DNA of 64,000 nt from an uncultured archaeon (lineage in GTDB: Archaea; Nanobdellota; Nanobdellia; Woesearchaeales; UBA9642). The stretch lies in NCBI GenBank assembly GCA_963777125.1, contig CAVZPN010000003.1, positions 32,503 to 96,502 on the forward strand, written 5' to 3'. This document shows, piece after piece, positions 1 to 19,876 of this stretch. The notes below the pieces were generated by a model. It worked only from the letters and a program-made list of their open reading frames with translations. It did not search any database and had not been told where the DNA came from. The translations under genes and the position numbers were made by a program. Positions within the stretch are counted from its first letter, which is position 1. Each line of letters opens with the position of its first letter.

Positions 1-1
1 C

Positions 2-1479: not shown

Positions 1480-1484
1480 CTAAT

Positions 1485-1910
1485 TTATTCTTTTTTTATC
1501 TTTGGTCTGCCGATAATTTTATTTTTATTTACTTCTTTAAACCAATTTTGTATCATTCTTATAGAATAATTTCTCCCAAAAGCTTTGTAGATTTCCCATT
1601 GAGCTTGTTGAGGAGTTGATACTTCAAAATGCCTATAAGGCATATTAGATCTTATAAAATATCCTCGTCTTATGCTTTCTTTTATTTCAGCTATGTTATT
1701 ATTAGTTAATTTTTGCTTCTTATTAAACGAATATTTATTATCGAAGTTATAGGGATTATTTATATGCCTATGAATACGAAAATAAATTGTTGAGAGTGGA
1801 AGATGTAATTGTTTAGAAATCTCTTTCGGAGTCTTACCTATAGAAATTAATTCAACTATTTTCTTTCTTCTCTGTATAAATAACGGATTTATGATTTTAT
1901 TCCTCCGCAT
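1485..1910 (-). CDS. HTH DNA-binding protein
   Basis: KIVELISIGKTPKEISKQLHLPLSTIYFRI is an HTH signature. Confidence 0.6.
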   Translation of the reverse strand: MRRNKIINPLFIQRRKKIVELISIGKTPKEISKQLHLPLSTIYFRIHRHINNPYNFDNKYSFNKKQKLTNNNIAEIKESIRRGYFIRSNMPYRHFEVSTPQQAQWEIYKAFGRNYSIRMIQNWFKEVNKNKIIGRPKIKKE

Positions 1911-2272
1911 GAAATATTATCATAGTTTGTGTCCTCTCATTTAAATACTTTTCCAATATTGTTTCATATTTATATTTATTAGAATAAATAGTTCTCTTCA
2001 GCTAAAATGCACATTTTATTATCATAATAAAAAATAGATTATTATATACTTCAGAATATCCTTTTTAAGATATAGATTTCTCAAGCCGACAATACATATA
2101 AATAACCTTTACTATCCGATAGTAGTTATGAGTATTGTATTATTCTTATAACAATGATCGAGAGTTATCTGCTCGTGAGATCCAGCATACACAACAGTAA
2201 CATTACATTACTACCAAAATTAGAGCAGAAATTCTATTAGTAAATATTGGATAAAAAATTAGGAGGAATAAA

Positions 2273-2728
2273 ATGGAAGATAACAAAATAAATGCAAATA
2301 AAATTATACGATTAGGAAAAATATACGGTATATCGTATTTCAAAGGCAAAATATTGAAGAGAGAATATTATTTTAATGGTAAATTATATTATTTAATTGG
2401 AGGGTATCCGAAATCGCAATATTTTCAATACCCTGATGCAAACGGAAAGATAAAATTAGTAGATGAAAAGGATTTAAAAAAATATGGTTTAGATAATGAC
2501 AATATATCGGGTGTTCGCAGTGAAGTAAGTATCCAACAAGTTATCACTGCAGGTAAATCTATAGGTAGAATTGTTTCCGATATTTATGAATATAGAGGAA
2601 AATATTATAGTAATATCTTGGTTATTGATGAAAAAAAGATGCTTCTTCACAAATCAAACCCTGATAACTTTGCAGAAAATGCTTCACCTTATGATTTATC
2701 TTTTTTCAAATTAAAAAAGGAGGAATAA
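2273..2728 (+). CDS. Hypothetical protein
   Basis: 151-aa ORF with GGAGG RBS; starts a tightly spaced run of genes. Confidence 0.55.
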   Translation: MEDNKINANKIIRLGKIYGISYFKGKILKREYYFNGKLYYLIGGYPKSQYFQYPDANGKIKLVDEKDLKKYGLDNDNISGVRSEVSIQQVITAGKSIGRIVSDIYEYRGKYYSNILVIDEKKMLLHKSNPDNFAENASPYDLSFFKLKKEE

Positions 2729-2729
2729 A

Positions 2730-3026
2730 ATGAACACATACACTAAAGAAGAAATACATAAAGTCTTGTTAGATAGATTAGAAAGAGAAATTAGAATCCA
2801 AAAAGAAAGAGGCGTGGCAGAGTTATCGCCAAGTATGTTGTATTTACAAGGATACCATGAAGCCATCTGTGATTCTATATGGGATTTGTTTGATGAAGTG
2901 TGTAAAATTGAATCATGGGATAAACACGTAGAAAATTATAAGAGAGCAAATAATATCAAAATAATAAAAGTTCCATTAAAATATATTCATACAAGTATAA
3001 CGGAGGATAAACATGAAGAAGAATAA
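2730..3026 (+). CDS. Hypothetical protein
   Basis: 98-aa ORF, GGAGG RBS, 1 nt after the previous stop. Confidence 0.55.
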   Translation: MNTYTKEEIHKVLLDRLEREIRIQKERGVAELSPSMLYLQGYHEAICDSIWDLFDEVCKIESWDKHVENYKRANNIKIIKVPLKYIHTSITEDKHEEE

Positions 3027-3474
3027 TTTACCTAAACCACATTCAGAAATGGAGAGATACCACACATTAGATGAAGTAAGCTATGCTATTTCTGCTGAAG
3101 AATTGTCTGATGTGAATAGATTATTGTTGTGTGAAGCATGTCTTAAACTTCCAAGAGACATGGTTGATAAAATAGGATCAGAAATATTTTTTTTAGACTT
3201 TGAATATACTATGGCACTTCATCTACGCATAAATACAATCAAACGAAAGAGCATAATCTTTTTTTCAGATGAATTTACTGATTTAAGCGATAATGAAAAA
3301 ATCAGAATAATATTGCATGAAATTGGACACCATATTTTAGGTCATAAAAGCCACATGTGCCTCGAATGTTGTCCAGATTGTTTTGAACAATTTGAGAAAG
3401 AAGCAGATGACTTTGCACAGAAATATCTTACAGATTCTGAAATACGAGGGAGTGAAAATGAAATCAGAAATTAA
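3013..3474 (+). CDS. HExxH zinc metallopeptidase (ImmA/IrrE- or M48-like)
   Basis: IILHEIGHHILGH motif followed by E-x-E-A-D-x-F-A (EKEADDFA). Confidence 0.7.
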   Translation: MKKNNLPKPHSEMERYHTLDEVSYAISAEELSDVNRLLLCEACLKLPRDMVDKIGSEIFFLDFEYTMALHLRINTIKRKSIIFFSDEFTDLSDNEKIRIILHEIGHHILGHKSHMCLECCPDCFEQFEKEADDFAQKYLTDSEIRGSENEIRN

Positions 3475-3595
3475 TAAACTAATCAATGCGACAAAAAATC
3501 CTGCTGAAAAGAAAATAATTGCGCTAATATATTATTCGGGGTTACGAGTAAGCGAAATAAAAAATCTTCAAATCAGCGATATTGAAAAACACTAA
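3458..3595 (+). pseudogene. Truncated tyrosine recombinase fragment (45 aa)
   Basis: ALIYYSGLRVSEIKNLQISDI is the box I Arg motif; stop codon follows, no HxxR or Tyr motifs. Confidence 0.7.
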
Positions 3596-3790
3596 TATGT
3601 TAAAAGACATTAAAGTGTTATTTATCACGTTGGAGTATTTTTTTCTTCTTTTTCTATTCTTGGTATTAGTTCAATACTTATAATCTCGTATTTTATTATC
3701 ATAATAATATTATTCGAGAAATCTTTATATGTCTTTCTCTAATATTTTCGGATATTTTACGAATATTTCGTATATTTTTGGGGGTGCTTT

Positions 3791-4513
3791 ATGAATAGAA
3801 GTAGATTTCAGTTGGAGTTTGCAGGGTATAATCATCAGGATTCTACCGAGAAGCGTATGTATAAGGAATTGTATGATTGTCCGAAGTGGCAATTAGTATT
3901 AATATCTAAAGTAGTGCATGATATTCGCAAGGAGAAATATATTCGTTCTAAAGATACTAAATATGGTGATCTTCCGAGATGTTTTAACGAGGAGCAGATA
4001 TTTAGATTTTTTAAGGGTTGGAAAAATAAAAAGGTCAAAAATGCGTTTCTAATCCAATTCTTTTATGGACTTCGAGTTGGAGAATTAAAGAATATAACTT
4101 ATTTGAAAAATCAAAACTTGTTGAGAGTCTATAATGAGAAGTGCAATCGAATAGAATATCTTCCCGTGCATGGAAAGACAAAGGAATTAATGAAACATAT
4201 TCCTATAACGCTCTCATCACATTATTTGCGTAACAAATTCAGAGCTAACACATTCAGACATAAAATGAATTATTCATATAATACAAGCACCGATGGTTTG
4301 AAATTATGGCAATTCACAACCCATAGCATGAGACATAGCTCAATAGTAATATTCGGGAGACATATTGTTGATCCAATTAAATGTATGAAATTTAGCAGAC
4401 ACAAAGCAAACAAGACATTCGGGGTATTACCGACATACAGTTATTATGGACAGGATGAATTGAGAAAAGATTTAGAAAAAGCATTTAAGAAATATTACGG
4501 TTTAATTATTTAG
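3791..4513 (+). CDS. Short tyrosine recombinase (catalytic domain)
   Basis: FFYGLRVGEL (Arg), THSMRH (HxxR), SRHK (His), TYSYY (Tyr candidates). Confidence 0.8.
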   Translation: MNRSRFQLEFAGYNHQDSTEKRMYKELYDCPKWQLVLISKVVHDIRKEKYIRSKDTKYGDLPRCFNEEQIFRFFKGWKNKKVKNAFLIQFFYGLRVGELKNITYLKNQNLLRVYNEKCNRIEYLPVHGKTKELMKHIPITLSSHYLRNKFRANTFRHKMNYSYNTSTDGLKLWQFTTHSMRHSSIVIFGRHIVDPIKCMKFSRHKANKTFGVLPTYSYYGQDELRKDLEKAFKKYYGLII

Positions 4514-5009
4514 TAACTTTATCTGCAAGTTTTTTAGCAGTTTGTAGTTGATCGGCAAAGTCCGATACCTCTTGAGCTGTTTTTGCAGTTTTTACAAATA
4601 GTTTTAATCTGTTACAATCCTGCTCGGATAATGTCTGACAATTAGTATCAACTACAGACATCATTGCTTGATATGTTGCATCAGATACAGCATCATTAAC
4701 TGTATTAACAGCATCAGTAACTTGCGTTGAAGTTTGACCTATCGCACTATTAGCGAAAGGATATGCGATAAGGTAAGTTCCTCCAGTAGCAAGAAGACAT
4801 ACTAAAAACGCTATGCCGATGTAGAGTGATGCTTCTTGAAATAAAAAAAGCGATACTATTAATGCTATAAGTAGGATTATTGACAAAACACCTACTATGG
4901 GAAATAATATTTTAGCAATATAAATAACTCCCGCTATAATTGCACAGATTAAGATAAACACTCCAAAATAGACTGCACCGTCGCTTTGACCATTGCCTGA
5001 TTTGTTCAT
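4506..5009 (-). CDS. Membrane protein, last gene of the hsd operon
   Basis: About three hydrophobic helices then a soluble helical tail; the MNKSG start gives an ATGA overlap with the hsdR stop. Confidence 0.6.
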
Positions 5010-8000
5010 GTTGTGATCTCTGCCCAATCTTTTGCTACTATTTTTGCTTGATCCAATACTGTTTCTATTGCTTTTTGTTCCATGTCAGGCGGATAACCAT
5101 ATTTTTTTAGAACTCTTTTTACTAATACTCTTAATTTTGCTTGTAGATTGTCTCTTTCTGTCCAATCTACTTTTACATTGTTTCTTATAGTTTCTACTAT
5201 TTCTCTTGCTATAGCTTTAAGTGCTTTATCGCCGAGTATTTTTACCGCCGAATCATTTACTTCTAACGCATCATAGAATGCTACTTCATCTTCAGTTAAA
5301 TTTAATTCTTCTCCTCGTTTATTTGCTTCTCGCATATTCTTTGCTAAATCTACGAGTTCTTGAATTACTTGTGCAGTCTCAATATTTTTGTTAGTGTATG
5401 ATCTGATTGATTTTTCAAGCATTTCGAGGAAAGATTTACCTTGAACAATATTCTTCTTCATCTTGATTCTTATCTCATCATTGAGTAATTTCTTTAACAT
5501 TTCAAATGCGAGATTCTTTTGTGGTAATTCTTTTACATCTTCAAGGAATGCGTCTGATAATATTGCTACATTTGGTTTCTTTAATCCTGCTGATGCGAAT
5601 ATATCGACTACCCTATCAGATATTATTGCTCGTGATAATATTTGTCTTATTGCTGTATCGAGTTGATCTGAATCTGTTCCTTTGAGTGTTGTGTGTTTTG
5701 CTATTGTTGATTTTATTGCTTGGAAGAATCCTACTTCATCTTTAATGGTCATAGCTTTGTAATGTGGTATTGATAATGCGAATGCACCAATTAATGCTGT
5801 TACATTCTTTAAGTATCTTTCTTTACCATCTTTTTGTTTTAAGATGTGTTCCATTGCGTCAGGAATCATTGACATCTTATCTTTAGCCGATGCTGTAAAG
5901 AACTTTTTATAATTAAATCCGTGAAACATTGCTGTAACTATTTCATATTTTTCAAGCATTATTGCAACTGCTTCTGATTGGTCTATTGTTGGTTTTCCTT
6001 GTCCACCACTTTCAGTATAATTCGCAAGTGCTTTCTTTAACTCGTGAGCGATACCGATATAATCAACTATTAATCCACCTTGTTTGTCTTTGAATACTCT
6101 ATTTACTCGGGCTATCGCTTGCATAAGTCCGTGAGATTGCATTGGTTTATCAATATACATCGTGTGTAAACATGGAACATCAAATCCTGTAAGCCACATA
6201 TCTCTGACAATAACAAGTTTTAGTGGATCAGTTGGATCTTTCATTCTATCGCCGATCTTTCTTCTCTTCTCTTTGTTTCTAATATGTTTTTGCCATGATA
6301 CTTTATCTGTTGCTGATCCTGTCATAATAACTTTAATTGCACCTTTCTCATCATCTTTACTATCCCATTCGGGTTTGATTTTGATTATTGCTTCGTATAA
6401 TTCGACACATATTCTTCTACTCATGCACACTATCATTCCTTTGCCGTCCATTATTTCAGTTCGTTTTTCAAAGTGTTCTACTATATCTTGTGCAATTTTA
6501 TTTATTCTTTTCTCGCTTCCAATAACTTTCTCGAATCGTGCCCACTTACTTTTGAGTTTTTCTTTAATATTAGATTCTTCACTCTCTGTGACATCTTCAA
6601 ACTCTTGATCTATAGTTGGTCTCTCTTCAGGTTTTAATTCAAGTTTAGCAAGTCTACCCTCGTAATATATTCTTACTGTTACATTATCTGCGACTGCTTG
6701 TTCGATATCATATACACTGATTACTTTTCCAAATACTGCAGGAGTACTTCTATCTTTAGTCTCTATCGGTGTCCCTGTAAATCCTATAAATGAAGCGTTT
6801 GGTAGTGCATCTCTTACATATTTTGCAAAGCCATATTTTATTAATGCTTCATCGTCTTTAGTTGTAACTTTTGCTTTAAAGCCATATTGTGTTCTATGTG
6901 CCTCGTCAGCAATAACTATGATATTTGGTCTATCAGATAATACTGGATAAATATTTTTATTATCTTCTGGAGAGAATTTTTGAATGGTTGTAAATACTAC
7001 ACCCCCCGATGCTACATTTAAGAGTTTTTTAATTTCGTCTCTGCTTTCTGCTTGAACTGGTTTTTGTCTTAATAACTCATGGCATTTTAAGAATTGATCA
7101 AATAATTGTTCATCTAAATCATTTCTATCAGTAAGAACTACAATGGTCGGATTATTTAATTCGAGTATAAGTTTTCCTGCATAAAATAATGCTGTCAAAC
7201 TTTTTCCTGCACCTTGCGTATGCCATACTACACCTGCCTTTTTATCAGTTCTTATGGCTTTTATTGTTGATGCTATTGCATCATTTACAGCATCATATTG
7301 ATGATATGCTGAAAGTATCTTAATCTTTTTCTCTCTTACTGTCTCAAATACTATAAAATGTTTGATAATATCCAAAAGAGTAGTTTTGTTTAACATTCCT
7401 TTAATTAATACTTCAAGTTCAGACATCTTACTTGGCTTTTTACCATTAATAGTTTTCCAAGCAGTAAATCTTTCCCAATCAGAAGTTAATGATCCTGCTC
7501 TTGTAAAGTTACCGTCGCTAATTATAAGAATTTCATTGTATGTGAATAATGATTGAATTTGATGTTTATATGTTTGTAATTGTTCATACGCTTTCTTTAT
7601 AGTTGCCTGTTCATCAGCAGGATTCTTTAATTCAATAACTACAACAGGAATACCATTAAGGAACAATAAAATATCAGGTCTACGATTAACATTATTTTCA
7701 ATAATCGTATATTGATTAATTGCTGTAAATTCATTGTTCTTTACATCAGGATCAATTAATTTTACGGTCTTATGTTTTATCTCGCCCTTAATTCGACATT
7801 CTACTGCAACACCATTGATGAGCATGTAATGAAATACATTATTATTCATTACAAGTTTATCAGTAGAAACTCTTAAAAGAATCTTAATAGCTTGATCAAT
7901 AGCTTCATCGGGAACATCTTTGTTAATCTTTTCCAACGCAGATCTTAAACGATCAACGAGAATAATATCCTGATAGGTTTTTCTTTCAGGATGACTTCCA

Positions 8001-8101
8001 TCAGGAGAAATATCTAAACCATTAACTATCTCATAACCTTGCTCTCGAAACATATCAAGAGCCATTAATTCAACATCCTCTTCAGTTATTATGTTTCTCA
8101 T
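5006..8101 (-). CDS. hsdR: Type I restriction enzyme subunit R
   Basis: [19 protein letters not shown] nuclease motif, HTQGAGKS Walker [14 protein letters not shown] and QAIARVNR helicase motifs. Confidence 0.96.
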
Positions 8102-9024
8102 TGTATTGTTCTCTCTTCGAATTGTATATTGAGTAATTTAGCAACACTATTCATATTGTGAATAGATGTTTTATCCCATGATTCTCTGAATCCAATGAAT
8201 TTAGAGTGCGTTATATTTAAATGGTTATTCTTTTTTGAGAATAAAATCAAGTCATTGGTTTTGCGTGCTTTTTCACCTGATTTTATTTCTATAGATTCGA
8301 GAGTATTTCTCCCATCAGATATAAGAAAATCAAACTCTGATTGAGGTATTTTTGATGGATTGCCTATATCTATGTCATGTTCATAAATAATATTTTTACT
8401 ATCTAAATAAGTCTTATACTCCTCTTCATAAGTATTTTTTATATTTCCCTTGCTCCATTTAATATTAGGATTTCTACGCATAGCAATCTCTTTTATTGTT
8501 TTTGTTTTATTGAAATCTTTGTCAATTTTAGTTATTAGTTTCCTGTAATCAAAATTATCTGCTTTTTTTTCTATTAATGTATCAAATGCGTTTGCCCTAT
8601 CATCTTGCAAGTCAAAATTTATTAAATCCGAGATAGGGTCAATCAAATAATCTTTAACTAATAGTGTATATTTTTTCAACTCTTCTAATAATGCTTCAGT
8701 AAGATAATATTCTTGCCTTATGTATTGATGAAATTGACCATTATATCCTAACCATCGACAAAAATTAACAACGTGATCTAATCTTCTTCGTAATTGTATG
8801 TCTACGCAAATTAATTTATCTAAATTAGAATGTATGAATATTTCACACACCACTTTTAAATGTCTGGCTTCACCACCGAATAATTCGGGATCTCTATTTT
8901 CTATGCCATCGATAATCCGTTCAAACATTCCTTTTATGAAGAGATTAAACGGATGACCTCCCGAATAGATTATAATCGGATTAAGTTCCAGAAACTCTTC
9001 CAATCTTTGTTTTTCAGTCTTCAT
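8098..9024 (-). CDS. Putative PD-(D/E)XK nuclease-domain protein
   Basis: C-terminal [10 protein letters not shown]...SIEIKSG fits PD-(D/E)XK; helical N-terminal half unassigned. Confidence 0.55.
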
Positions 9025-9026
9025 TT

Positions 9027-9536
9027 TTATATTGAATTGACGATAAATTGTTTAAACTCATCTGCTCTTGTTTTTCTATCAATAGATTCAGTGATACTTA
9101 CTAAACCATATTTTTTCAAATTAAGGATGTGCTTTTCTAATATACATTTTGGATCTTTATTTATTTTAAAGTTATTTTTCAGAACGAAAAAATAGCAAGT
9201 ATGCGTCTTATGTACTATGTCTAACAACTTTTGCGTATCATAATTAGGATTATCTGTATCAGGATTAAACGCTACAATAATATTTCTATTGTTTGTTTCT
9301 TTTACAAAATCTGTAAATTCATCTGGGTCATCAGAATTTGACATTCTTCTAATAAAGAACTCAAAATTTTCAGGATCATCAGAATTTGACATCCTACGTA
9401 AAATGAAGACTTTATTCTTAATAGTGATATATCTACATAATGTATTATTAGTAAATAACCTTAATGTTGCTGATTTACCCCAATTTGAGTATCCGACTAC
9501 AAAAAAAGCTAATTTTTTATTCATATTTTCACCCAT
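9027..9536 (-). CDS. Small P-loop NTPase/kinase-like protein with internal 16-aa duplication
   Basis: N-terminal beta-strand plus GYSNWGKS (GxxxxGKS); RRMSNSDDP occurs twice. Confidence 0.55.
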   Translation of the reverse strand: MGENMNKKLAFFVVGYSNWGKSATLRLFTNNTLCRYITIKNKVFILRRMSNSDDPENFEFFIRRMSNSDDPDEFTDFVKETNNRNIIVAFNPDTDNPNYDTQKLLDIVHKTHTCYFFVLKNNFKINKDPKCILEKHILNLKKYGLVSITESIDRKTRADEFKQFIVNSI

Positions 9537-9538
9537 GA

Positions 9539-10219
9539 TTATTCTTCAGGATTAATTATGCGTATATCATCAATATCTTCTATACTTTCTTTCATCTCTA
9601 AAAATTCTAATAAAATTTCTCTATATGCTTCAGGATCATTATTAAATAAAGTTTCACTCGCAGTATATTGGAGATCGCCTAATTTCACACTACCATTTAT
9701 TTCATCATAATATTTGTTAAATTCTTCGTAATCTCTATACAATAATCTGTGTCTCTCTCTCACATCATTAAATTGTCTGTGTGTTTGTATGTAAAATCCG
9801 CAAATAGAATCAGTCATTCCTGCTGTTAATTTACTTATCATCGGGGAAATTCTCGCTAATTGAACATCATGTCCATGTGATATTAACCCATTTCTATTTC
9901 TTAGTTCACAAACACCAACGACTACTTGACCAAAACCACTATTTATTTTTTTTAATGACTGAATGTTTTCATGCTGTGTAAGATGTTCTGTGACTATAGA
10001 TTCGAATGTTTGTTTAGATAATTGCGGAACAGAAGAAGTCTCTTCAAATACAATGCCTTTATCAGTTAGAATTGTTTTACATACGGTCTCTATGATTGCT
10101 TTCGAACCATCTATTGACGCTTCAGGTTTTGAATCTAAATACTCTTCAACGATAACCGCCTGATCTCTTAATCGATTCCATTCTTCATGTTTTTCAGTTA
10201 TTTCATTTAGCCATTCCAT
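9539..10219 (-). CDS. Abortive-infection C-terminal (Abi_C)/HEPN-like protein
   Basis: AIIETVCKTIL and SGFGQVVVGVCELRNRNGLISHGH match the Abi_C pattern, with an R...H motif. Confidence 0.65.
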   Translation of the reverse strand: MEWLNEITEKHEEWNRLRDQAVIVEEYLDSKPEASIDGSKAIIETVCKTILTDKGIVFEETSSVPQLSKQTFESIVTEHLTQHENIQSLKKINSGFGQVVVGVCELRNRNGLISHGHDVQLARISPMISKLTAGMTDSICGFYIQTHRQFNDVRERHRLLYRDYEEFNKYYDEINGSVKLGDLQYTASETLFNNDPEAYREILLEFLEMKESIEDIDDIRIINPEE

Positions 10220-11517
10220 TTTACACGTATCTGTCCAGACATCAATTTAGGTAATAGTAAATCTCTTAAACTCTTTAGTCTGTTTGTCTCAAGAACATTA
10301 TTTTCGACTTTAGCTCTCAATGAACGAGATATTGTTTCAAAAAGAGTAATAATTTCCTTTGAAGGCACAATAATATTAATCTTTTTAATACCTTTAACAT
10401 TTAAACTGTTAAAGATTGTTCCCTGATCAGTATTTTTAGTTATTTGTTCAATCCCGTATGAAGAATTTAAATATCTCAATAAATAAGTTGGAGGTATTTT
10501 TTCAGGTCTTATAACAGTTATATTTCTTCCTACCCCTGATATAAAATCTTCAGGAATTTGTGCAATAGCACCTACTAATCCTGCATTAGTGATTATACAA
10601 TCACCCTTACGAACCTCGACATTTCGAGTCCAATAGATATAATCTTCATCTGAAACTAAATATTTATCTTCAAGATTCAGAGTTCCGTGTTTAGAGATAT
10701 TATATACTTGAAGTAATATTTTACCTCCTGTAACAGAATCTGGCTTTTTTGAATGTAGACAATCAATTATTTGTGCAATACTTGTAAGATTTGCAACACT
10801 CCAACCTTTAGGTATTTCTCCAAGTTCAGAATCTATCATTTCTCCACCCGAAGACTTGTAAGGTTTACCCCTCACATTAGGAAATTCAAAATTAAGGAAC
10901 CATTGATTGAATAATGTTTGACCAATCAATTCAAGAGTATTATTAATTTCTTGATTTATTTCAATTTTCGAATCTACAGCCGAAAGAATTTTAGCAATCT
11001 TTATTTGTTCATCTAATTTCGGAACAGGAGTTAATAATTTAGACAACTCTCCGAGATATATTCCTGGTTGAGCAGTAGTATTTATTCTTGAAGATATTAA
11101 CAATTTAAATTGATTAGACGTTAGCCAGTAAAATAAAAATTCATAATGCAACTCCTTACCACACCGCATTATAGCAATACTTCTTTGCATAGAAAAGGGC
11201 AAATCTTCTTTTTTAACAATGGCAACATTTCCAACCGTTCCAACAATTGTTAATAAAATATCATTGGCATTTATTTGATAATATTTATGTATTTTATGAT
11301 AATCTTCTTCGTTAATATAAGTGCAGTTGCTAAAATCAATATGTCTATATGTTAAATCCGAAGCACCCGCAATAAATTTTATTCCAGAAGAATGTCTCTT
11401 TGGCGGATTGTGACTACCATCTTTCAAAAGTTCCAAAAGCTCCCCGAGAGGTTTAATCTGCCAATCTTCAGGAATCATTCCTATTTCTGTTTCTTTGAAT
11501 TTTGTTGTTTGTTTCAT
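10207..11517 (-). CDS. hsdS: Type I R-M specificity subunit S
   Basis: EIGMIPEDW, two TRDs, central PKLDEQIKIAKIL...ELGEIPKGW spacer, C-terminal LRDLLLPKLMSG. Confidence 0.95.
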   Translation of the reverse strand: MKQTTKFKETEIGMIPEDWQIKPLGELLELLKDGSHNPPKRHSSGIKFIAGASDLTYRHIDFSNCTYINEEDYHKIHKYYQINANDILLTIVGTVGNVAIVKKEDLPFSMQRSIAIMRCGKELHYEFLFYWLTSNQFKLLISSRINTTAQPGIYLGELSKLLTPVPKLDEQIKIAKILSAVDSKIEINQEINNTLELIGQTLFNQWFLNFEFPNVRGKPYKSSGGEMIDSELGEIPKGWSVANLTSIAQIIDCLHSKKPDSVTGGKILLQVYNISKHGTLNLEDKYLVSDEDYIYWTRNVEVRKGDCIITNAGLVGAIAQIPEDFISGVGRNITVIRPEKIPPTYLLRYLNSSYGIEQITKNTDQGTIFNSLNVKGIKKINIIVPSKEIITLFETISRSLRAKVENNVLETNRLKSLRDLLLPKLMSGQIRVKWNG

Positions 11518-13676
11518 ATTGCTTCTTGTGGTGACTTTTCTTTAATTGTTAATAATTCTATATTTACTTCTTTTAGACCTTTAGTCTTCGTTAATAATTC
11601 GGTATATATATCATCTAAATCAGATAAGTATTCTTTGCGAGGAATTATTTTTATTGCTATGCCATATCTTACTAATACATTTGTGTCTTGAGAATATTTT
11701 ATGTTATATCGTTTAGGTATTATTTTAAGAGTGCATAATCCTGTTTGTTTCTCTTTTTTCTCGGCTTTTTTTGATGCTGTTTTAAATTCTGCAATGTGGA
11801 TGTTTGTTGGTGCATCAAAAGTAGTGCTAATTTTATCAAATTTAGTGTCTTCTTTTTTTAGTTGCATACCGAAATATAATAGTGATTTAGTGTATGGTTC
11901 CTTAATAAAATTGTTAGAGTGCACTAATATTATTTGTATTCTCTCAATCTTTTCAGCATTTAGATGAAATTTAATATCGTGCGCTTTTTGTCTTAAATAC
12001 TTGCCCTCTTTCTTTTTTCTATAATTTTTCATCAGAATTGCTTTCTCATTGAATATTAGAACAGCTCTTTTTTCAACTTCGAAATCAGAAAATGAATTTA
12101 GATATACATTTCCAAAGGAACCAAGCTGTTTAGAATATTCGATATTACCGCACGCTAACATTAGTGCCTTATATGTTTCTGAATTTTTTATTTTCGGATA
12201 TTGATATACTAATCTTAAAAAGAAGTTAGTCACACATGCAACAGCAAAACTTGTTCCGTAATGGTTAATCAATTTACCATCGTTTGAAACAGTAGGTAAT
12301 AACTCTTTTTTTTGCGTAGAAGTTACTCCTCCGCCTAAAAAATAAAACTCGGGTTTAATTAGGAAATGTTCTTCATTATCTTTCTCCAAATCTTTATACA
12401 TAATACTTTTTCGAGATATTGGAGAAATTAATGGCGATTCCGTATCAGTTTTTAGAAGTGCACCTACTGCAAAAATGTTCTTACAGTTGCTTGGAAATAA
12501 CATGGTGTTTTTCTCTATTAATCCTTTTTTTTCTGCAAGTGATGACTCATAATTATTACCTACCGAATTTAATACTATTACGTTCTTTTTATGAATAAAC
12601 TGGTCTAATCTTCGAGACAAATAATGAATTAAAGGAGTTTCTAATGTTTCATAAATATTGTATGCCATCACAAATACTTTGCATTTATCCGAATAAGTAT
12701 TAATTGCATTAACCAATCCGATAATCAAATTTTCCTTTTGCCCATCTGAAATCTTATATGAATATAAGTTAAATTCCTGATTAAGAACAGGTTTATTTGT
12801 TAATAATTGTTCGCCACATAATGCTAATGATGCAACTTGTGTCCCATGATCTAATAAATCATCATTCAAATTTGATAATTTCTTCTCATCAGAAACAAAG
12901 AATACGTGATTACTTACACCGCAATCCACTACGCATACTGCGGGTTTATCTTTCAGGTAAGGTTTATCTATTTTAATGACTATGTCTTTACCTTTCACCA
13001 TTTCTTCTTTTTCATAACAAACAGTTTCAATATCTCTTAAATAAGTATATATTACGTACTTTTTTTGTAATATTTCTCTATATTTGTTTCTGTCTGTAAT
13101 ATCTGCAATAACTATGCCTAATTCATCTATAAGTCTTATTTTTTTCAAATAAGATAAGCCACTCAATTCCAATAAGCATTGTTTCGTATCTACATTATCT
13201 TTTAAAATTATTATTATAGAATTATCGTTTGATACGGATGGAATGTAATGTTTAAGAGCTTCTGCATAGGATTTGCCTGTTAATACTAATGGTTCTTTTA
13301 CAATGCAATCAAATGTAGAGACTAACTTACCTTTGATAAAAAAACCATCTTCTTTGAATTTAGTAGAATTAATTTGTAAAATAACATTTGTTTCATTCTC
13401 ACCTATTGTTTTATATGTAGGTTCATCTTCTCCAGAAATTCTTTTTATAGCTTTTTGTATCTCTTCGTCACAGACTATATTATTAAATTCGATATATACA
13501 CAAATGTTTTCTTGTTGTTCTTTAAGAAATTTTAATTTAGTAAGAAATGGATTTATTATTGCATCTCTTTTAGAATATTCTTCTCTCTTCTGTTCATCAG
13601 TCAAATTAGGAAACCCTGCACCTTGTTGATAAATTGACTCTGAATCGTTTAGCTCAATAAATTTTTTTATGACCAT
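11514..13676 (-). CDS. S8 (subtilase) serine peptidase, cytoplasmic IetS/Y4bN-like type
   Basis: Catalytic triad VVDCGV (Asp), DHGTQVA (His), GTSFA (Ser), oxyanion NSVGN; no signal peptide. Confidence 0.8.
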   Translation of the reverse strand: MVIKKFIELNDSESIYQQGAGFPNLTDEQKREEYSKRDAIINPFLTKLKFLKEQQENICVYIEFNNIVCDEEIQKAIKRISGEDEPTYKTIGENETNVILQINSTKFKEDGFFIKGKLVSTFDCIVKEPLVLTGKSYAEALKHYIPSVSNDNSIIIILKDNVDTKQCLLELSGLSYLKKIRLIDELGIVIADITDRNKYREILQKKYVIYTYLRDIETVCYEKEEMVKGKDIVIKIDKPYLKDKPAVCVVDCGVSNHVFFVSDEKKLSNLNDDLLDHGTQVASLALCGEQLLTNKPVLNQEFNLYSYKISDGQKENLIIGLVNAINTYSDKCKVFVMAYNIYETLETPLIHYLSRRLDQFIHKKNVIVLNSVGNNYESSLAEKKGLIEKNTMLFPSNCKNIFAVGALLKTDTESPLISPISRKSIMYKDLEKDNEEHFLIKPEFYFLGGGVTSTQKKELLPTVSNDGKLINHYGTSFAVACVTNFFLRLVYQYPKIKNSETYKALMLACGNIEYSKQLGSFGNVYLNSFSDFEVEKRAVLIFNEKAILMKNYRKKKEGKYLRQKAHDIKFHLNAEKIERIQIILVHSNNFIKEPYTKSLLYFGMQLKKEDTKFDKISTTFDAPTNIHIAEFKTASKKAEKKEKQTGLCTLKIIPKRYNIKYSQDTNVLVRYGIAIKIIPRKEYLSDLDDIYTELLTKTKGLKEVNIELLTIKEKSPQEAI

Positions 13677-13689
13677 TTAAACACTCTTA

Positions 13690-14073
13690 TTATTTTTTGT
13701 ATAATATGAACACAGGATATGAAGCCACACGCTTCCTTAATTCTTTCAATGTATCTGAATTTTTCTCGTAGTGAACATCATCCTCAAAGTCTTGTGACAA
13801 ATTTTTAAATTCTAAAGATAGCTCTCTATATCCATTAACTTTTTCTATATCATTTTTGAATACTAAAGGAATCACTGTAAACACTAATGCTAAAGCACTC
13901 ATAAAGAAATTCAAATCTTTCCCTGAAATCCAATCACCTAATAGTAATATTCCTATAATTATAGATGCTAAAATGCTAACTAAATATAGATAGGAGTAAA
14001 AGTTTGCAGTTTTTTCTAATTGATCATGATATCCTTTGCATTCCTGTATCTTTTGATGAGTGTTGATTATCAT
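13690..14073 (-). CDS. SLATT-like two-TM effector protein
   Basis: Short N-terminal helix, two TM helices, then NGYRELSLEFKNL amphipathic helix; SLATT-type architecture. Confidence 0.55.
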   Translation of the reverse strand: MIINTHQKIQECKGYHDQLEKTANFYSYLYLVSILASIIIGILLLGDWISGKDLNFFMSALALVFTVIPLVFKNDIEKVNGYRELSLEFKNLSQDFEDDVHYEKNSDTLKELRKRVASYPVFILYKK

Positions 14074-14276
14074 AGTAATCTTAACAACCTCCAGAATGCA
14101 ATTATAATCATAACAATAAATAGAAAACTAATAAATCCTCCAAGAGCACCAAACACTGTGAAAGTAAGAACGCCACTATCTAAAACTGCTTTAATAAACA
14201 TATAGATTATGAAAACACCAACAATTAAAGACATGATGGTTTTAATACTCTGTCCTTTTTTGTTTCTTAAAATCAT
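14070..14276 (-). CDS. Small membrane protein with class III (pilin-like) signal motif
   Basis: MILRNKKGQ followed by a hydrophobic stretch; second hydrophobic helix; ATGA overlaps at both ends. Confidence 0.5.
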
Positions 14277-15799
14277 ATCTTGTATCCTATTCCTTTCAGA
14301 TTTATTTTGATTTCTTCTTCTAACTCATGTGATTTCTTGAATTGTTCAGATAATTCAGCAGTTAGTCTTTCCATCTTTTCTTTGAATGCTTCTGGATCAT
14401 CTTCTACATCTTCAGCACCCACATATCTTCCTGCAGTTAATACATATTCGTGTTTTTGAACTTCATCGAGTTTTGCTGACTTACAGAATCCTTTTACATC
14501 TTCATACTTGCCTTTTTCTCCACGCCATGCGTGATATGTAGAACTAATTTTCGCAATTTCTTCAGATGTCAATTCTCTGTGTCTTCTATCTGCCATTACA
14601 CCCATGTTTCTTGCATCGATAAATAGTATTGAACCTCTTCTGTCTTTGAAGTTGTGATCTTTCTTGTCTCTTGTTACAAACCATAAACAACACGGTATCA
14701 TTGTATTGTAGAATAGCTGTGATGGTAATGCTACTATGCAATCTACTAAATCATTTTCAACAATGTTCTTTCTTATCTCTCCCTCTCCTGAAGTATTAGA
14801 ACTTAATGATCCGTTGGCAAGAACAAATCCTGCGACTCCCGTCGGATTTAGGTGGTGTATGAAATGTTGCACCCATGCGTAGTTTGCATTTCCACTCGGT
14901 GGAACTCCGTATTTCCATCTTACATCGTCTCTTATACTTTCAACTCCCCAATCACTCATATTGAACGGAGGATTTGCTAATATAAAATCTGCTTTCAAAT
15001 CTTTATGTTGATCGTTATGAAATGAATCTCCTAACTGTATTTTGGCATCAATTCCTCTGATTGCTAAATTCATCTTTGCAAGTTTCCAAGTAGTCGGATT
15101 ACTTTCTTGTCCGAATACATGAATGCTATCTATCTTTCCACCATGTGCTTGAATGAACTTTTCTGATTGAACAAACATTCCACCACTTCCACAACAGGGA
15201 TCATATACTCTTCCCTTGTATGGTTCTATCATTTCAACTAATAATTTTACAATAGGTACGGGTGTATAGAATTGACCGCCTCTTTTACCCTCTGCATCAG
15301 CAAACATTCCAATAAAATATTCATATACTCCACCAAGAACATCTTTACTTTTACTTTCTTTACTTCCAAGACCTATAGTTCCAATCAAATCTATAACTTC
15401 ACCAAGTCTTTGCTTGTTAAGTGCAGGTCGTGCATAGTCCTTTGGTAGAACTCCTTTAAGCGATGGATTATGTTTCTCTATCAAATCCATTGCATCATCT
15501 ATAAACGAGCCAATTTCTGGCTTTTTAGCGTTATCTTGAAGATATTCCCACCTTGCATGTTTAGGAACCCAAAAAACATTATCCATTTTATACTCATCAG
15601 GATCTTCTGCATCTGCACTCTTGTCTTTAGAGAGTTCATCATGTCTCTCCGTAAACGCATCCGAAATATATTTCAAGAAGATTAAACCTAAAACTACATG
15701 TTTATACTCTGAAGCATCCATATTGTTACGCATTTTATCAGCAGAAGCCCATAGCTTTGCCTCAAAACCTAAATTAGAAGTGTTACTATTAGTTGCCAT
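14273..15799 (-). CDS. hsdM: Type I R-M methyltransferase subunit M
   Basis: [10 protein letters not shown]-terminus, [17 protein letters not shown] (motif I), LANPPFN (motif IV, N6-adenine). Confidence 0.96.
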
Positions 15800-15833
15800 T
15801 TAAATCCCCCATCTAAACCCATACTAAAGTTAA

Positions 15834-15841
15834 TTTATAAA
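15834..15841 (-). promoter_or_regulatory. Archaeal TATA box for the hsd operon
   Basis: TTTATAAA preceded by GAAACC on the minus strand, ~35 nt before the hsdM start. Confidence 0.5.
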
Positions 15842-15993
15842 GGTTTCTTCAATGAAACCACCGTGAATAAGATAGAGTATTGCTCCAAGTCTATTGCTAC
15901 TGCTAAAAATAGTGAAAAATCGCATCCAAATAAGTAATTTTGACTTTATTCTTCCCAGCAGTTATAACTATTCCGACTATAACTTTGTACTAT

Positions 15994-16015
15994 AAAGCTT
16001 TTGGCCAAAAGCTTT
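15994..16015. repeat. Perfect 22-bp palindrome AAAGCTTTTGGCCAAAAGCTTT
   Basis: Read directly; 11+11 perfect dyad. Confidence 0.9.
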
Positions 16016-16216
16016 CTAATTTTGTCGTCTATAACCTTATTTTAAAGAGATCCAAAAATGCGTTTTGTAGCGTTTTTTTTGTTATAGAGAAAAGCTCACG
16101 TATCGTGCGGGCACGTGCGGGCGTCATGCAACTCATACCTCGCTGACCATATATACTTTTTATCGACGGTAAATGTTTTGCCATTGTACGTAATGCCACA
16201 GTTTTTCTGACTATTC

Positions 16217-16573
16217 AAGTCTCATAAAAGCACATTTGCAAATAAATAATTTTATAACAAAATACAAGTGGAAGCAGATAATAAATTTGAGACTTCAGAT
16301 CTGTGAGACCACTTTTTATCGTCATAAGTCTCAAAGTCTCAAGGTCTATCTTCGGATTTTGTAAAAACTTTTAGTTAATCAGAAATATTAATTGGTTTTG
16401 ATGTTGATACTAACTTGTGCTCAAAATAGTTGTTTTTAAAAAAATTGAGACTTTTTTACGCACAATTTGTAAATCAAATAATTATATTATTGGTTCATCA
16501 GATCGATTTGTACGTTGATACTAACTTGTGCTTGAAATATGTGTTTTTAAAAAAATTGAGACTTTTTTACGCA
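16217..16573. repeat. Iteron-like region: six exact AAGTCTCA/TGAGACTT 8-mers plus two ~60-bp direct repeats
   Basis: 8-mers at 16217, 16288, 16326, 16334, 16446 and 16557 in both orientations. Direct repeats 16403-16462 and 16514-16573 differ at 4 positions. Confidence 0.85.
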
Positions 16574-16644
16574 TGAACTAAAAATGCACAGGACACACAA
16601 GACATTCATAGACAATGAGAATTAGCTAAAATAATTTAAGCGTT

Positions 16645-16682
16645 AAGGGTTTGAAATGCGAATTGGAACATCTCAAACCCTT
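16645..16682. repeat. Stem-loop (14-bp stem with one mismatch, 10-nt loop)
   Basis: AAGGGTTTGAAATG ... CATCTCAAACCCTT. Confidence 0.8.
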
Positions 16683-16706
16683 TGGGGAAAACAACGGATC
16701 ATAACA

Positions 16707-16850
16707 TCATTTCTTCTTTAAACGCTTCTTAATCTTGGTATCATAAAACTTCATAAAAAAGGACACCCAAATAAATGCACCAAGACCGCTTCCGATGCCA
16801 GAACATGCACCGTATAATATTAATTCAAGTAATTTTGTTTGTTCAATCAT
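16707..16850 (-). CDS. Small single-TM protein (47 aa), absent from the ORF track
   Basis: MIEQTKLLELILYGACSGIGSGLGAFIWVSFFMKFYDTKIKKRLKKK; start overlaps the upstream stop; glycine-rich TM then basic tail. Confidence 0.6.
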   Translation of the reverse strand: MIEQTKLLELILYGACSGIGSGLGAFIWVSFFMKFYDTKIKKRLKKK

Positions 16851-17130
16851 CTAATATCGGAACCTCGCTTAAAGGCATAGTCTCATCCATGTGATCATCC
16901 GTAATATCATTAAGCAAACGAATACGATATACTTCATCAATTGCATCATCAAGTTTATCTAAAATATCAAGCACAACTAATTCTCGTTTTAAAAGTAAAA
17001 TAGTTGTTATTGTAGAATTAATTTGGTCACGAGATTTATTTATAATATTTTTAATCTCTTCACTTATAGCTTTTTCAATTTCTTTGCGTCTTGCTAATCT
17101 TATTTCTTTTTTCGGATATATATCGTTCAT
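16843..17130 (-). CDS. Hypothetical helical protein
   Basis: 95-aa ORF, GGAGGG RBS, part of a compact operon. Confidence 0.55.
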   Translation of the reverse strand: MNDIYPKKEIRLARRKEIEKAISEEIKNIINKSRDQINSTITTILLLKRELVVLDILDKLDDAIDEVYRIRLLNDITDDHMDETMPLSEVPILDD

Positions 17131-17172
17131 TTTTCCCCTCCATATAAAATTATAAAAAAATAAAAATTAAGT

Positions 17173-17382
17173 TTATTTTTCTAACTCAACTATTTTCTTT
17201 AGTTTGTCCGTTGAGAAAGATAATATCTTGTTTGTTGAAGCATCTTTAATCTTCAGCTCACGTTCATTTAAGGAAGATAATTTACCCTCGACCTCAAATC
17301 CCTCAACAAATTCTGCCAAGATTGGCTTACCAACAAACTGTTTCCATTCTACCACTTGCTTCTTTACCATTTTATTCACCAC
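17173..17382 (-). CDS. Small LSm/SH3-like beta-barrel protein
   Basis: FVGKPILAEF..GFEVEGKLSSL....LKIKD fits an Sm-like strand pattern. Confidence 0.45.
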   Translation of the reverse strand: MVNKMVKKQVVEWKQFVGKPILAEFVEGFEVEGKLSSLNERELKIKDASTNKILSFSTDKLKKIVELEK

Positions 17383-17384
17383 CG

Positions 17385-17648
17385 TTATTCCTGTGTTTTT
17401 GTTTCAGGAATAATCTTATTTTCTGTGCCATTTCTGGCAACTGCTTCTCCTGCTCTGGAGTTAGTTCTATCATGTCTACCACCCTCCCTACGAATAATCA
17501 AAGAATCATCAATAATATTCCATTCAAAAGAGAACGTCTCTCCTTTACGAAGTTTAAGTGTCCTACAATAAATATTAGGTAAACAAAGAAAAAAACTTGT
17601 TTCATTCTGCGTAATACGCCTTGTTCCGAGATCAAAGTTAGATGCCAT
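17385..17648 (-). CDS. AbrB/MazE/SpoVT-like DNA-binding protein
   Basis: RITQNETSFFLCLPNIYCRTLKLRKGETFSFEW....LIIRR swapped-hairpin pattern. Confidence 0.65.
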   Translation of the reverse strand: MASNFDLGTRRITQNETSFFLCLPNIYCRTLKLRKGETFSFEWNIIDDSLIIRREGGRHDRTNSRAGEAVARNGTENKIIPETKTQE

Positions 17649-17746
17649 ACTATATGTAAAACCAAGTTATTTATCAATAACCACGCCAATTCTAAAAAAC
17701 CATTTTTCCCACTGATTAAAATCAACAGTAAATAATAAACTAAAAA

Positions 17747-18913
17747 TTGCGAGGAGAAACTATGAAAAAAAACAAAGAAGCATCAGATTCAGCGTTAGTA
17801 AAAGAATTAAAAAAATCTTTATCGAACTGTTCTAAAGCAGGAATTATGATACGAATATTATTGAATGATCCAGAAATATATTCGCAATATAAAAGTAATC
17901 CTGATCATTATTATGCTTTAAGAATAGTTTATCCTGAAACGAAACAACTATTTTTTCCAAAAGATTTTCAAAAGACTGCAGAACAGTACAAAGAACTATT
18001 CAAGGAGATGAAATTAAATATAGATGAAAAAAGATTACCTGCTTTGAAAAAAACAAGAGCATATAATCACAAAAATGAGATATATACAAATAATAAAGCA
18101 CCATATATTAGTGAGGATGATTATTATGACGTTAAATCAAAATTGCGACACATAATACATATAGAAAAATTGAAAACTGATAGACCTGTAAGAAGCGGAA
18201 CAAAAGGAGATATTCCTAAATTAGGAATTAAATTAGCCAATATCCCTATAGTATTTTATGCACTCTACACTGCGTTTTCAGAAGCAAAAGAACTGCATAT
18301 ATTTATGAACTCGCAATACTATGAACGAAATAAATTTATGTTAGAAGTTGGAAAAAATGAAATAGAAATGAAATGGTTCGTTCCAACATATCGTCCAAAA
18401 GAAACTCACATAATCCATGAGCAACAAGGTCTTAACTACGATATGAATCAATATTATGAACTGTTTAATCCATTAATTTCAATGTATTTTGATGATCCCG
18501 AATTATTTCTTCGATTAAAAGATCATTTCATAGGCGTATTCAGAAATAAAACACTTGACAAAGATATAAGCAAAAGAACTAAAGTTGCCTTTTGGATTCT
18601 TCAATTAGGTATTTTAACAAGCAAATATATTGAAACATTTAAAGAATTTGAAAAAAATACTGCAGACAAAGAACTTGAACAAAAGGTTCATCGAATAGCG
18701 TCAGATATACATCGTCGCCAAATATATTTAGACGGCATATTTTCCAATGAAAAAATAAAAATCAAAGACAAAACATTGATGAAACAAATAAATAAATTAG
18801 GCGAAATTGACAGGAAAATATTACAAAAGAATATAGGTATAATAAAAAAGATTGAAGAGGGATTGGCAGAAAATGATAAAAAAAATCAGAACAAGAAAAA
18901 TAACAAGTTTTAA
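17747..18913 (+). CDS. Hypothetical protein (388 aa), divergent from the AbrB-like gene
   Basis: Long ORF with GAGG RBS; no family recognised. Confidence 0.6.
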   Translation: MRGETMKKNKEASDSALVKELKKSLSNCSKAGIMIRILLNDPEIYSQYKSNPDHYYALRIVYPETKQLFFPKDFQKTAEQYKELFKEMKLNIDEKRLPALKKTRAYNHKNEIYTNNKAPYISEDDYYDVKSKLRHIIHIEKLKTDRPVRSGTKGDIPKLGIKLANIPIVFYALYTAFSEAKELHIFMNSQYYERNKFMLEVGKNEIEMKWFVPTYRPKETHIIHEQQGLNYDMNQYYELFNPLISMYFDDPELFLRLKDHFIGVFRNKTLDKDISKRTKVAFWILQLGILTSKYIETFKEFEKNTADKELEQKVHRIASDIHRRQIYLDGIFSNEKIKIKDKTLMKQINKLGEIDRKILQKNIGIIKKIEEGLAENDKKNQNKKNNKF

Positions 18914-19018
18914 ATAAATCCTATACTTTCACCATAGAGGAGGATGTAAGGAAGAAGCATACTTTTCCGAAAAGTTCTACTCAAAGGGTTATCACAAATC
19001 TGAGGCTTTTAATTTGAT

Positions 19019-19039
19019 GGTGCAAATCTGCACCTTTTT
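19019..19039 (+). terminator. Short GC hairpin plus T-tract, possible terminator
   Basis: GGTGC-AAATCT-GCACC-TTTTT, ~105 nt after the 388-aa ORF. Confidence 0.3.
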
Positions 19040-19841: not shown

Positions 19842-19876
19842 TAACATTTAAAAACAATAATAACCGTAAATGCTTA

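Follow-up and report, generated by a model that had tools for sequence, protein, structure and literature searches.

The analysis described here concerns a type I restriction-modification (R-M) operon, together with the additional genes that it carries (hereafter cargo), in the genome of an uncultured archaeon (GTDB lineage Archaea; Nanobdellota; Nanobdellia; Woesearchaeales; UBA9642). The operon lies in a stretch of 64,000 nt (GenBank assembly GCA_963777125.1, contig CAVZPN010000003.1, positions 32,503-96,502), the whole of which we call the window; coordinates are window positions, except that those preceded by C3 are contig coordinates. Ten genes follow one another on the minus strand from 15799 to 4506, in the order hsdM, the genes for a 68-aa and a 127-aa protein, an S8 protease gene, hsdS, an Abi_C gene, the genes for a 169-aa and a 308-aa protein, hsdR, and a membrane protein gene. 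They are listed below with the candidate promoter; TM stands for transmembrane and 2TM for two TM segments.

15835..15842, minus strand: TATA-like box TTTATAAA, read from the sequence, 36-43 nt upstream of the hsdM ATG; candidate promoter.
14273..15799, minus strand: hsdM, type I R-M methyltransferase subunit, 508 aa (Pfam N6_Mtase 4e-112, HsdM_N 1e-29; PADLOC MTase_I 768 bits).
14070..14276, minus strand: 68-aa 2TM protein with a prepilin-like motif, MILRNKKGQ; TM segments at residues 14-32 and 41-59.
13690..14073, minus strand: 127-aa SLATT-like 2TM protein, library matches sub-threshold; TM segments at residues 28-46 and 54-72.
11514..13676, minus strand: 720-aa cytoplasmic S8 (subtilisin-like) serine protease (Pfam Peptidase_S8 1e-20; PADLOC IetS 8e-17, 59 bits).
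10207..11517, minus strand: hsdS, 436 aa, two target-recognition domains (Pfam Methylase_S in two stretches, 6e-26).
9539..10219, minus strand: 226-aa Abi_C-domain protein, candidate HEPN-type RNase (Pfam Abi_C 1e-9, 38.5 bits, cutoff 24).
9027..9536, minus strand: 169-aa mini P-loop protein of an unnamed family, Walker A GYSNWGKS, with a duplicated RRMSNSDDP.
8098..9024, minus strand: 308-aa protein with a helical N-terminal part (YSGGHPF) and a C-terminal PD-(D/E)XK-like core (D232 ... E246-x-K248).
5006..8101, minus strand: hsdR, restriction/translocase subunit, 1031 aa (Pfam HSDR_N, SWI2_SNF2, T1R_D3-like and T1RH-like_C over the full length).
4506..5009 (ATG start) or 4506-5027 (TTG start, 173 aa), minus strand: 167-aa membrane protein, about three TM helices followed by a soluble C-terminal tail (about 80 aa); coupled to hsdR through ATGA.

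From hsdM to the tail, the nine junction distances are -4, -4, +13, -4, -13, +2, +2, -4 and -4 nt; all five 4-nt overlaps have the sequence ATGA, and the largest gap is 13 nt. When the whole 1.7-Mb assembly was surveyed with a crude longest-ORF (open reading frame) gene call, 24% of the same-strand junctions were 13 nt or less and 4% were exactly -4, and the nine tight junctions in series made up the longest such run in the genome, the runner-up having four. The tight arrangement thus exceeds chance. None of the ten genes has a second copy in the genome. A G-rich sequence, GGGGGA, lies 7-12 nt before the hsdM ATG, after the TATA-like box. Transcription of the entire ten-gene series probably starts at the hsdM promoter, and translation is probably coupled from gene to gene, so that the cargo would be expressed together with the R-M enzyme. 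The 1-kb non-coding stretch upstream of hsdM (15800-16840) contains two direct repeats of about 60 nt, e.g. GTGCGTAAAAAAGTCTCAATTTTTTTAAAAACA ... GCACAAGTTAGTATCAAC, and also holds several GAGAC/GTCTC motifs.

The HsdM, HsdS and HsdR proteins matched Pfam, NCBIfam and PADLOC models over their full length, with no sign of decay. HsdS scored 295 bits against PADLOC Specificity_I (positions 2-398 of 403), and HsdR scored 1166 bits against REase_I (5-1026 of 1029) and 628 bits against TIGR00348, for which the cutoff is 285. By these matches, the scaffold constitutes a complete type I R-M system, with the required domains in all three subunits. The original prediction, made from the DNA letters alone, had described a ten-gene coupled operon built on a type I R-M scaffold. 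The ORF coordinates confirmed the former, with its co-directional ORFs, five ATGA overlaps and gaps of at most 13 nt, and the full-length model matches for hsdM, hsdS and hsdR bore out the latter.

How common such embedding is was examined by fetching 80 hsdM genes of archaea and bacteria whose products are 65-81% identical to that of the window. For 49 of these loci hsdS and hsdR could also be placed, and an extra ORF was counted as cargo if it was at least 60 aa long and lay inside the operon. Cargo was present in 43 of the 49 operons (88%), and six or more cargo genes were present in 7 (14%); the window has six between hsdM and hsdR. Among the relatives, the cargo included Schlafen/AlbA_2 proteins (7), YhcG/DUF1016 proteins, which correspond to PADLOC PDC-S02 (6), OLD/ABC ATPases (5-6) and Abi_C proteins (3), as well as DUF3800, RhuM and GmrSD; a Piwi protein and MNT-HEPN pairs were found in congeners. 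The architecture is therefore not new: cargo is the default state in this hsd family, and the principle has already been published. "Guilt-by-embedding" was described for Hma, BREX, DISARM and type I R-M systems, and R-M-embedded genes were shown there to defend (Payne et al. 2024, bioRxiv 10.1101/2024.01.29.577857). The window resembles those loci in that genes are nested in an intact multi-gene defence system and the cargo is variable and mostly uncharacterised; moreover, its 308-aa protein weakly matches PDC-M24B, and its hsd relatives carry PDC-S02. It differs in that the survey covered RefSeq genomes and the present host is an uncultivated small-genome archaeon, in that there are six genes between hsdM and hsdR and a seventh after hsdR, and in that the S8, P-loop and 2TM families fall outside the PADLOC models. 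A second precedent is TgvAB, a GmrSD-like type IV pair in the type I R-M operon of Vibrio cholerae VPI-2, which provides a second, independent line of defence whose range of targets is complementary (PMC11411939). TgvAB likewise interrupts a type I R-M operon, but the protein families differ, and no GmrSD/DUF262 domain is present in the window, though one is present at L005, a related locus described below.

The operons of close relatives hold different cargo. In G155, a genome of the same genus with an hsdR 86% identical to that of the window, the slot between hsdS and hsdR (S-R slot) is occupied by an MNT-HEPN pair together with three small membrane proteins, all unrelated to the window cargo. 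The G402 operon, also from the same genus, has Piwi-domain and Hypoth_Ymh proteins in the slot between hsdM and hsdS (M-S slot), and its S-R slot contains an MNT-HEPN pair; that of G410, from the same order, has yet another cargo set. Because these three operons carry different cargo, the slots are evidently refilled quickly. The 68-aa, 127-aa, P-loop and tail membrane proteins were not found in ten congeners, and the P-loop, 308-aa and S8 families were not found in viral contigs. In the G402 operon (L151, G402:C1), the region 7982-11161 between hsdM and hsdS comprises a short Argonaute-like gene (Piwi 7e-16) with a 254-aa gene and Hypoth_Ymh as its flanking genes, and the MNT-HEPN pair of the S-R slot lies at 12567-13482; the hsdR of this operon is split into ORFs of 134 and 876 aa. 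The G155 hsdR (L148, C56:94-3146), the closest to that of the window, is also split, into ORFs of 179 and 817 aa around residues 162-174, by either a frameshift or an assembly error.

One could envisage from this rapid turnover, and from the split hsdR genes of G155 and G402, which show that such loci decay, that the cargo consists of functionless passengers, recently inserted and drifting to loss. The operon in the window argues against this: all ten ORFs are intact, conservation extends to the catalytic motifs (S8 triad, HEPN R...H, D...ExK and Walker A), and the ATGA coupling is preserved. The G+C content at third codon positions (GC3) of all ten genes, 0.19-0.25, matches that of the host; the match makes a compositional test for recent transfer uninformative, and as full amelioration it speaks against recent insertion. 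We regard passengers as a highly improbable explanation.

Our preferred reading, which we consider probable, is that the locus is an intact type I R-M operon on a tRNA-Thr-adjacent 22-kb element and that its cargo represents independent second-line anti-virus cassettes. The two inter-subunit gaps and the 3' end of the operon would act as cargo slots in a DPANN-type archaeon. The R-M enzyme would cut unmethylated incoming DNA, and the cargo effectors would damage RNA, proteins, DNA or the membrane once an infection passes restriction; the cargo proteins would not be subunits of one machine. At least five independently mobile cassettes may be present: the 68-/127-aa pair, the IetS-like S8 protease, the Abi_C HEPN protein in the slot that PrrC occupies elsewhere, the P-loop kinase-like protein, and the Mrr-like protein before hsdR. 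The tail membrane protein may be a sixth. We infer the anti-virus function of the cargo from its domain chemistry, its recurrence in R-M operons, the validated families in the same slots of relatives, and published precedent.

The first two cargo genes encode small membrane proteins. The N-terminus of the 68-aa protein follows the class III signal pattern (basic residues, G, Q, then a hydrophobic helix), and KKGQ also occurs in eight further ORFs of this genome, among them ones with typical pilin N-termini, e.g. MQNKKGQAAIEFL. The protein lacks a pilin-type extracellular domain; it is only 68 aa long and has a second TM helix at residues 41-59. For the 127-aa protein, the NCBIfam matches were to SLATT_4 (E 0.012, 15.5 bits against a cutoff of 55) and SLATT_1 (E 0.028), and a match to the PADLOC 2TM effector model (E 0.0018) was also below its cutoff. 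A word-based homolog search with the 127-aa protein returned only the protein itself, and relatives came solely from a six-frame search of 400 genomes of the phylum. One of these, in G128, is 30% identical and has SLATT_4 as its top match as well (E 0.017). It is preceded, with a 4-nt overlap, by a gene for a 71-aa 2TM protein weakly similar to the 68-aa protein; no hsd genes adjoin this pair, the downstream side of which is cut by the contig end. In addition, a 73-aa protein starting MRIKNKKGQ occupies the M-S slot of G410. These observations suggest that the 68- and 127-aa genes form a portable two-gene membrane cassette, probably SLATT-like.

SLATT domains are said to have been described by Burroughs and colleagues in 2015 as 2TM effector domains of nucleotide-signalling conflict systems. 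The 127-aa protein resembles them in its length, which is near that of the SLATT_1 and SLATT_4 models (132-154 positions), in its helix-TM-TM-helix topology, and in its repeated weak SLATT_4 matches. It differs in that those matches are below thresholds, in that there is no SMODS, SLOG, reverse transcriptase or cyclase partner, and in that its partner is a 2TM protein with a prepilin motif.

The S8 protease has a central catalytic domain, and its flanks, about 240 aa at the N-terminus and about 210 aa at the C-terminus, match no assigned domain. No TM segment or signal peptide was predicted, and no relative was found by a sequence search of the PDB. Among 5.8 billion protein clusters only two relatives were detected, at 37-38% identity, and single-protein and profile scans of genome, metagenome and viral contig collections yielded no further members. 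The triad residues D251, H277 and S476 and the oxyanion residue N374 are invariant in the three known members. Both relatives are encoded in metagenome-assembled genomes of Methanosarcinales, inside R-M operons. At one of these loci (L005) the order is hsdM-S8-hsdS-OLD...GmrSD-hsdR, and the S8 gene overlaps both hsdM and hsdS; at the other, the S8 gene is located after a methylase/S-fusion gene, DUF6602 and DUF2779. Neither locus has an IetA-like ATPase, a SLATT-like or a 2TM neighbour, and IetA is also absent from the window.

The closest known system is IetAS. The window protease resembles IetS in being cytoplasmic, in belonging to a 720-750 aa class and in having its catalytic domain in the middle of the protein, and its best PADLOC matches are the IetS models. 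However, its score for the NCBIfam model IteS_antiphage, 40 bits, falls far short of the 900-bit cutoff and so of family level; furthermore, none of the three S8 members has an IetA-like ATPase beside it, and all three are archaeal and embedded in R-M operons.

The small distance between the SLATT-like and S8 genes (13 nt) could be taken to indicate that the cargo makes up one or two integrated multi-protein systems. In one version, cleavage by S8 would turn the SLATT-like/2TM pair into a pore in the membrane, in the way that bacterial gasdermins are activated by proteases. The lack of a SLATT-like or 2TM neighbour at both other S8 loci argues against this version, as does the G128 2TM pair, which is not preceded by hsd genes and whose downstream side, where an S8 partner would have to be sought, falls beyond the contig end. 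A second version concerns the trio of genes between hsdS and hsdR and is taken up with the P-loop protein below.

The Abi_C protein is the first gene product after HsdS. In addition to its Pfam match, it matched PADLOC AbiJ, but only with the C-terminal part of that model (172-276 of 281, 3e-6), and neither Pfam nor PADLOC revealed an AbiJ N-terminal domain. A sequence search of the PDB yielded nothing useful. The motif E105-L-R107-N-x6-H115-G does not vary among six homologs. Genes for homologs occupy the position between hsdS and hsdR in Nostoc (L041), in Elusimicrobia (L085 and L087), in Planctomycetaceae (L044) and on a Paraburkholderia plasmid; the last was also the best match in an independent search of plasmids with the Abi_C protein, with the order hsdM-hsdS-Abi-hsdR. 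In L041, in L085 and on the Paraburkholderia plasmid, the Abi_C gene is the sole cargo of the S-R slot. This Abi_C subfamily therefore appears, from the gene neighbourhoods at hand, to be tied to the hsdS-hsdR slot across bacteria and archaea. The Abi_C protein SadR was experimentally shown to be an RNase with anti-phage activity, in which the HEPN R-polar-x(n)-H motif is catalytic (PMC13590631). In common with the AbiJ/SadR family, the window protein has an Abi_C domain above the Pfam cutoff and keeps the R-polar-x(n)-H motif; it differs by the missing AbiJ N-terminal domain, by a subfamily-specific C-terminal extension of about 75 aa, and by a six-residue spacer in the motif.

The position of the Abi_C gene recalls PrrC of the EcoprrI system of E. 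coli, in which the gene order is hsdM-hsdS-prrC-hsdR. As with EcoprrI-PrrC and RloC, a gene for a HEPN-type RNase occupies the hsdS-hsdR slot and is predicted to be co-expressed with the R-M enzyme. Unlike those proteins, the Abi_C protein lacks an ABC-ATPase domain, and it is not similar in sequence to either of them; searches of Pfam, NCBIfam and PADLOC detected neither a PrrC/RloC match nor a fused ABC-ATPase N-domain in any of the cargo proteins. A PrrC-like response to inhibition of R-M is thus, for this locus, pure inference, the resemblance being limited to the slot and to HEPN chemistry.

The 169-aa P-loop protein has no Pfam family and no match among plasmid or viral contigs, yet it belongs to a family of at least 177 representative clusters (E <=0.001), mostly of about 150 aa. 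The conserved motifs of the family are VGHSNWGKS and RRMSNDD, and GxxxxGKS is invariant. An AlphaFold2 (AF2) model of the protein reached a predicted local confidence (pLDDT) of 88.6, and Foldseek aligned the model with P-loop kinases and GTPases, matching general topology only (TM-score <=0.47; guanylate kinases at a probability of about 1). Within residues ~45-80 (window 9330-9430), the most conserved motif of the family is duplicated in frame (RRMSNSDDPENFEFFI / RRMSNSDDPDEFTDFV), and a near-invariant His and Cys are replaced (VGYSNWGKS, AFNPD). The closest relative, P0007 (48% identity), has both the duplication and the His/Cys replacements, which places the 169-aa protein in a distinct subfamily. 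Since P0007 has the duplication too, we rejected the view that it represents damage, and as a subfamily trait it also weighs against functionless passengers. Another family member, P0009, has a multi-TM N-terminal extension. At 36 loci of the P-loop family no neighbour is conserved, and hsd genes directly precede the P-loop gene at 4.

In the second version of integrated cargo, the P-loop protein would sense a nucleotide signal and switch the flanking HEPN and PD-(D/E)XK nucleases. The 2-nt gaps between the genes of this trio are very tight, the effector types are complementary, and some members of the P-loop family carry a fused TM or alpha/beta-hydrolase domain, a frequent feature of sensor modules. 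On the other hand, the Abi_C homologs stand alone in the S-R slot, a homolog of the 308-aa protein is found without Abi_C or P-loop genes beside it, and the P-loop relatives have no conserved neighbour. Considering both versions, we find it quite unlikely that the cargo forms one or two integrated systems, and independent cassettes remain our preferred reading.

The last gene before hsdR encodes the 308-aa protein, whose residues D232, E246 and K248 are invariant in three homologs. Its matches were weak: PADLOC PDC-M24B at 6e-6 and CARF_PDDEXK at 0.005, and one homolog matched Mrr_cat at E 0.003. The AF2 model, built on an alignment of three sequences only, was poor (pLDDT 54). PDC-M24 is a two-gene system that is given by family number only in the supplement of Payne et al. 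(bioRxiv 10.1101/2024.01.29.577857); no match to its A component was found in the operon, and with only a weak B match PDC-M24 is therefore incomplete here. A homolog with 52% identity is encoded between hsdS and hsdR of an operon on groundwater metagenome contigs (L006-L008), where it is likewise ATGA-coupled onto hsdR. That operon consists of an hsdM (74% identical to that of the window), nine unannotated and unrelated genes (48-463 aa), hsdS, the 308-aa homolog and hsdR; in L007, hsdR is a 66-aa fragment, followed by an MNT-HEPN pair. Searches of genome and viral contig collections yielded no further relatives of the 308-aa protein, and a sequence search of the PDB gave nothing useful. For the tail membrane protein, a distant homolog with 26% identity was found in G137, where the neighbours of its gene are integrase-like genes and two DNA methyltransferase genes.

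The coupling of the 308-aa gene to hsdR in two divergent operons would also fit cargo that serves the element or the R-M system itself, as addiction or toxin-like stabilisers, by exclusion of competing elements, or as regulators or assembly factors of restriction, the 308-aa protein for example being an HsdR accessory. The operon resides on an integrase-bearing island, MNT-HEPN toxin-antitoxin pairs occupy the same slot in congeners, and the homolog of the tail membrane protein lies beside R-M genes and integrases, all of which agree with such a role. Against it, the HEPN, S8 and nuclease genes have no evident antitoxin-like partners, the same slots of relatives hold experimentally validated defence families, and most related hsd operons work without any of these cargo genes. 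We consider this explanation unlikely. The boldest proposal, which we put forward as very unlikely, is that the S8 family may be a new kind of restriction-linked protease effector that the Hsd complex, or an intact host state, keeps silent and that, on infection, cleaves host or viral proteins or processes the 68-/127-aa pair into a pore; in parallel, the type I enzyme would have true functional partners, rather than free-standing cargo, in the 308-aa protein and in the Abi_C subfamily specific to the hsdS-hsdR slot.

The genomic setting of the operon was established by comparison with congeners, and the features concerned are the following.

1..21071 (whole element -956..21071; C3:31546-53573), unstranded: part in the window of a 22.0-kb strain-specific island, from the congener comparison.
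1..631, plus strand: 3' part of the gene for a 495-aa tyrosine integrase, the start of which lies 856 nt beyond the left edge of the window (Pfam Phage_integrase 9.5e-14).
C3:31473-31545 (window about -1029 to -957): tRNA-Thr(CGT), predicted by ARAGORN, 100 nt before the integrase gene; left end of the island.
3791..4513, plus strand: 240-aa short tyrosine-recombinase-like gene (Pfam Phage_integrase E 0.008 only; HxxR by eye).

The hsd operon takes up 11.3 kb, or about half, of the island, which also contains the integrase gene, MarR/HTH regulators, an M78-like gene, the short integrase-like gene, a repeat-rich non-coding stretch and six unknown ORFs. The short recombinase-like gene is convergent with the operon and overlaps its end by 8 nt. 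Three congeners keep the flanks (a 122-aa gene, tRNA-Thr and a 344-aa gene) with 0.6-3.7 kb between them, compared with 22 kb here, and two conserved marker genes, separated by 8-12 kb in seven congeners, have 46 kb between them in this genome. Gene-by-gene comparison with the three congeners resolved three insertions, of which the hsd island is the middle one. A search for direct repeats of att (attachment) type, inside the island and at its far end, gave no copy of the tRNA 3' end of more than 11 nt. Given this result and the host-like GC3, the island may be old or immobilised. In G155, the same tRNA is followed about 55 nt downstream by a short repeat of its 3' end (CCAGAGGCTTTTT), which may be an att scar.

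Left of the window, at C3:16636-27423, another strain-specific insertion measures about 10.8 kb and has no equivalent in the three congeners. It holds a five-gene minus-strand cluster of two GHKL/HATPase_c_3 proteins (1277 and 637 aa), a 279-aa protein, a 532-aa AAA_23-like ATPase and a 708-aa protein with a long low-complexity middle rich in Ser, Lys and Asp; the cluster looks like another conflict or defence system. At window 23256-27484, three ATP-grasp-type genes (465, 478 and 438 aa) of a six-gene cluster are without a counterpart in the three congeners. Because the congeners keep the flanking 344-, 305- and 386-aa genes, this part of the cluster is a strain-specific insertion as well.

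The original prediction had placed the operon in an archaeal mobile element, and this setting is well supported, since the island adjoins a tRNA gene, bears an integrase and is missing in three congeners that keep its flanks. The further proposal of a layered defence module combining several effector types held in part. The extra genes do have defence-type domains, and four cargo types recur in or beside R-M operons; the notion of one combined module did not hold. Every cassette occurs elsewhere without the others, and related scaffolds hold different cargo, which argues that the locus is not a single ten-gene machine. The 68-/127-aa pair co-occurs elsewhere, in G128; no other two cargo families were found together at the loci examined.

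Several observations weigh against independent anti-virus cassettes. Most loci that show the R-M association were fetched through hsdM, which introduces a bias, the exceptions being the plasmid match and the loci fetched with the S8, 308-aa and P-loop proteins. Among these, the exclusive R-M link of the S8 family comes from three members, and the P-loop family occurs mostly outside R-M loci (32 of 36). The SLATT assignment of the 127-aa protein and the PD-(D/E)XK assignment of the 308-aa protein are both sub-threshold, and the 68-aa and tail membrane proteins are without functional homologs. In addition, the island may be a fixed remnant, no att repeat having been found.

What is new lies in the host group and in the load of seven cargo genes, which ranks in the top 14% of the family, as well as in the rare or unnamed families involved: an orphan subtilase embedded in R-M operons, an hsdR-linked Mrr-like protein, and the mini P-loop family. 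The locus also provides a clear case of an Abi_C subfamily that appears to be tied to the hsdS-hsdR slot in both domains of life. Its value is in candidate antiviral genes for DPANN-type archaea, a group barely explored in this respect; the candidates are the IetS-like subtilase, found in R-M operons only, the Abi_C protein of the PrrC slot, the Mrr-like protein that travels with hsdR, the P-loop family, and the prepilin-motif/SLATT-like pair. Given that the slots are refilled fast, with different cargo beside hsdR genes 86% identical, such operons make a convenient natural "rack" for finding archaeal defence genes.

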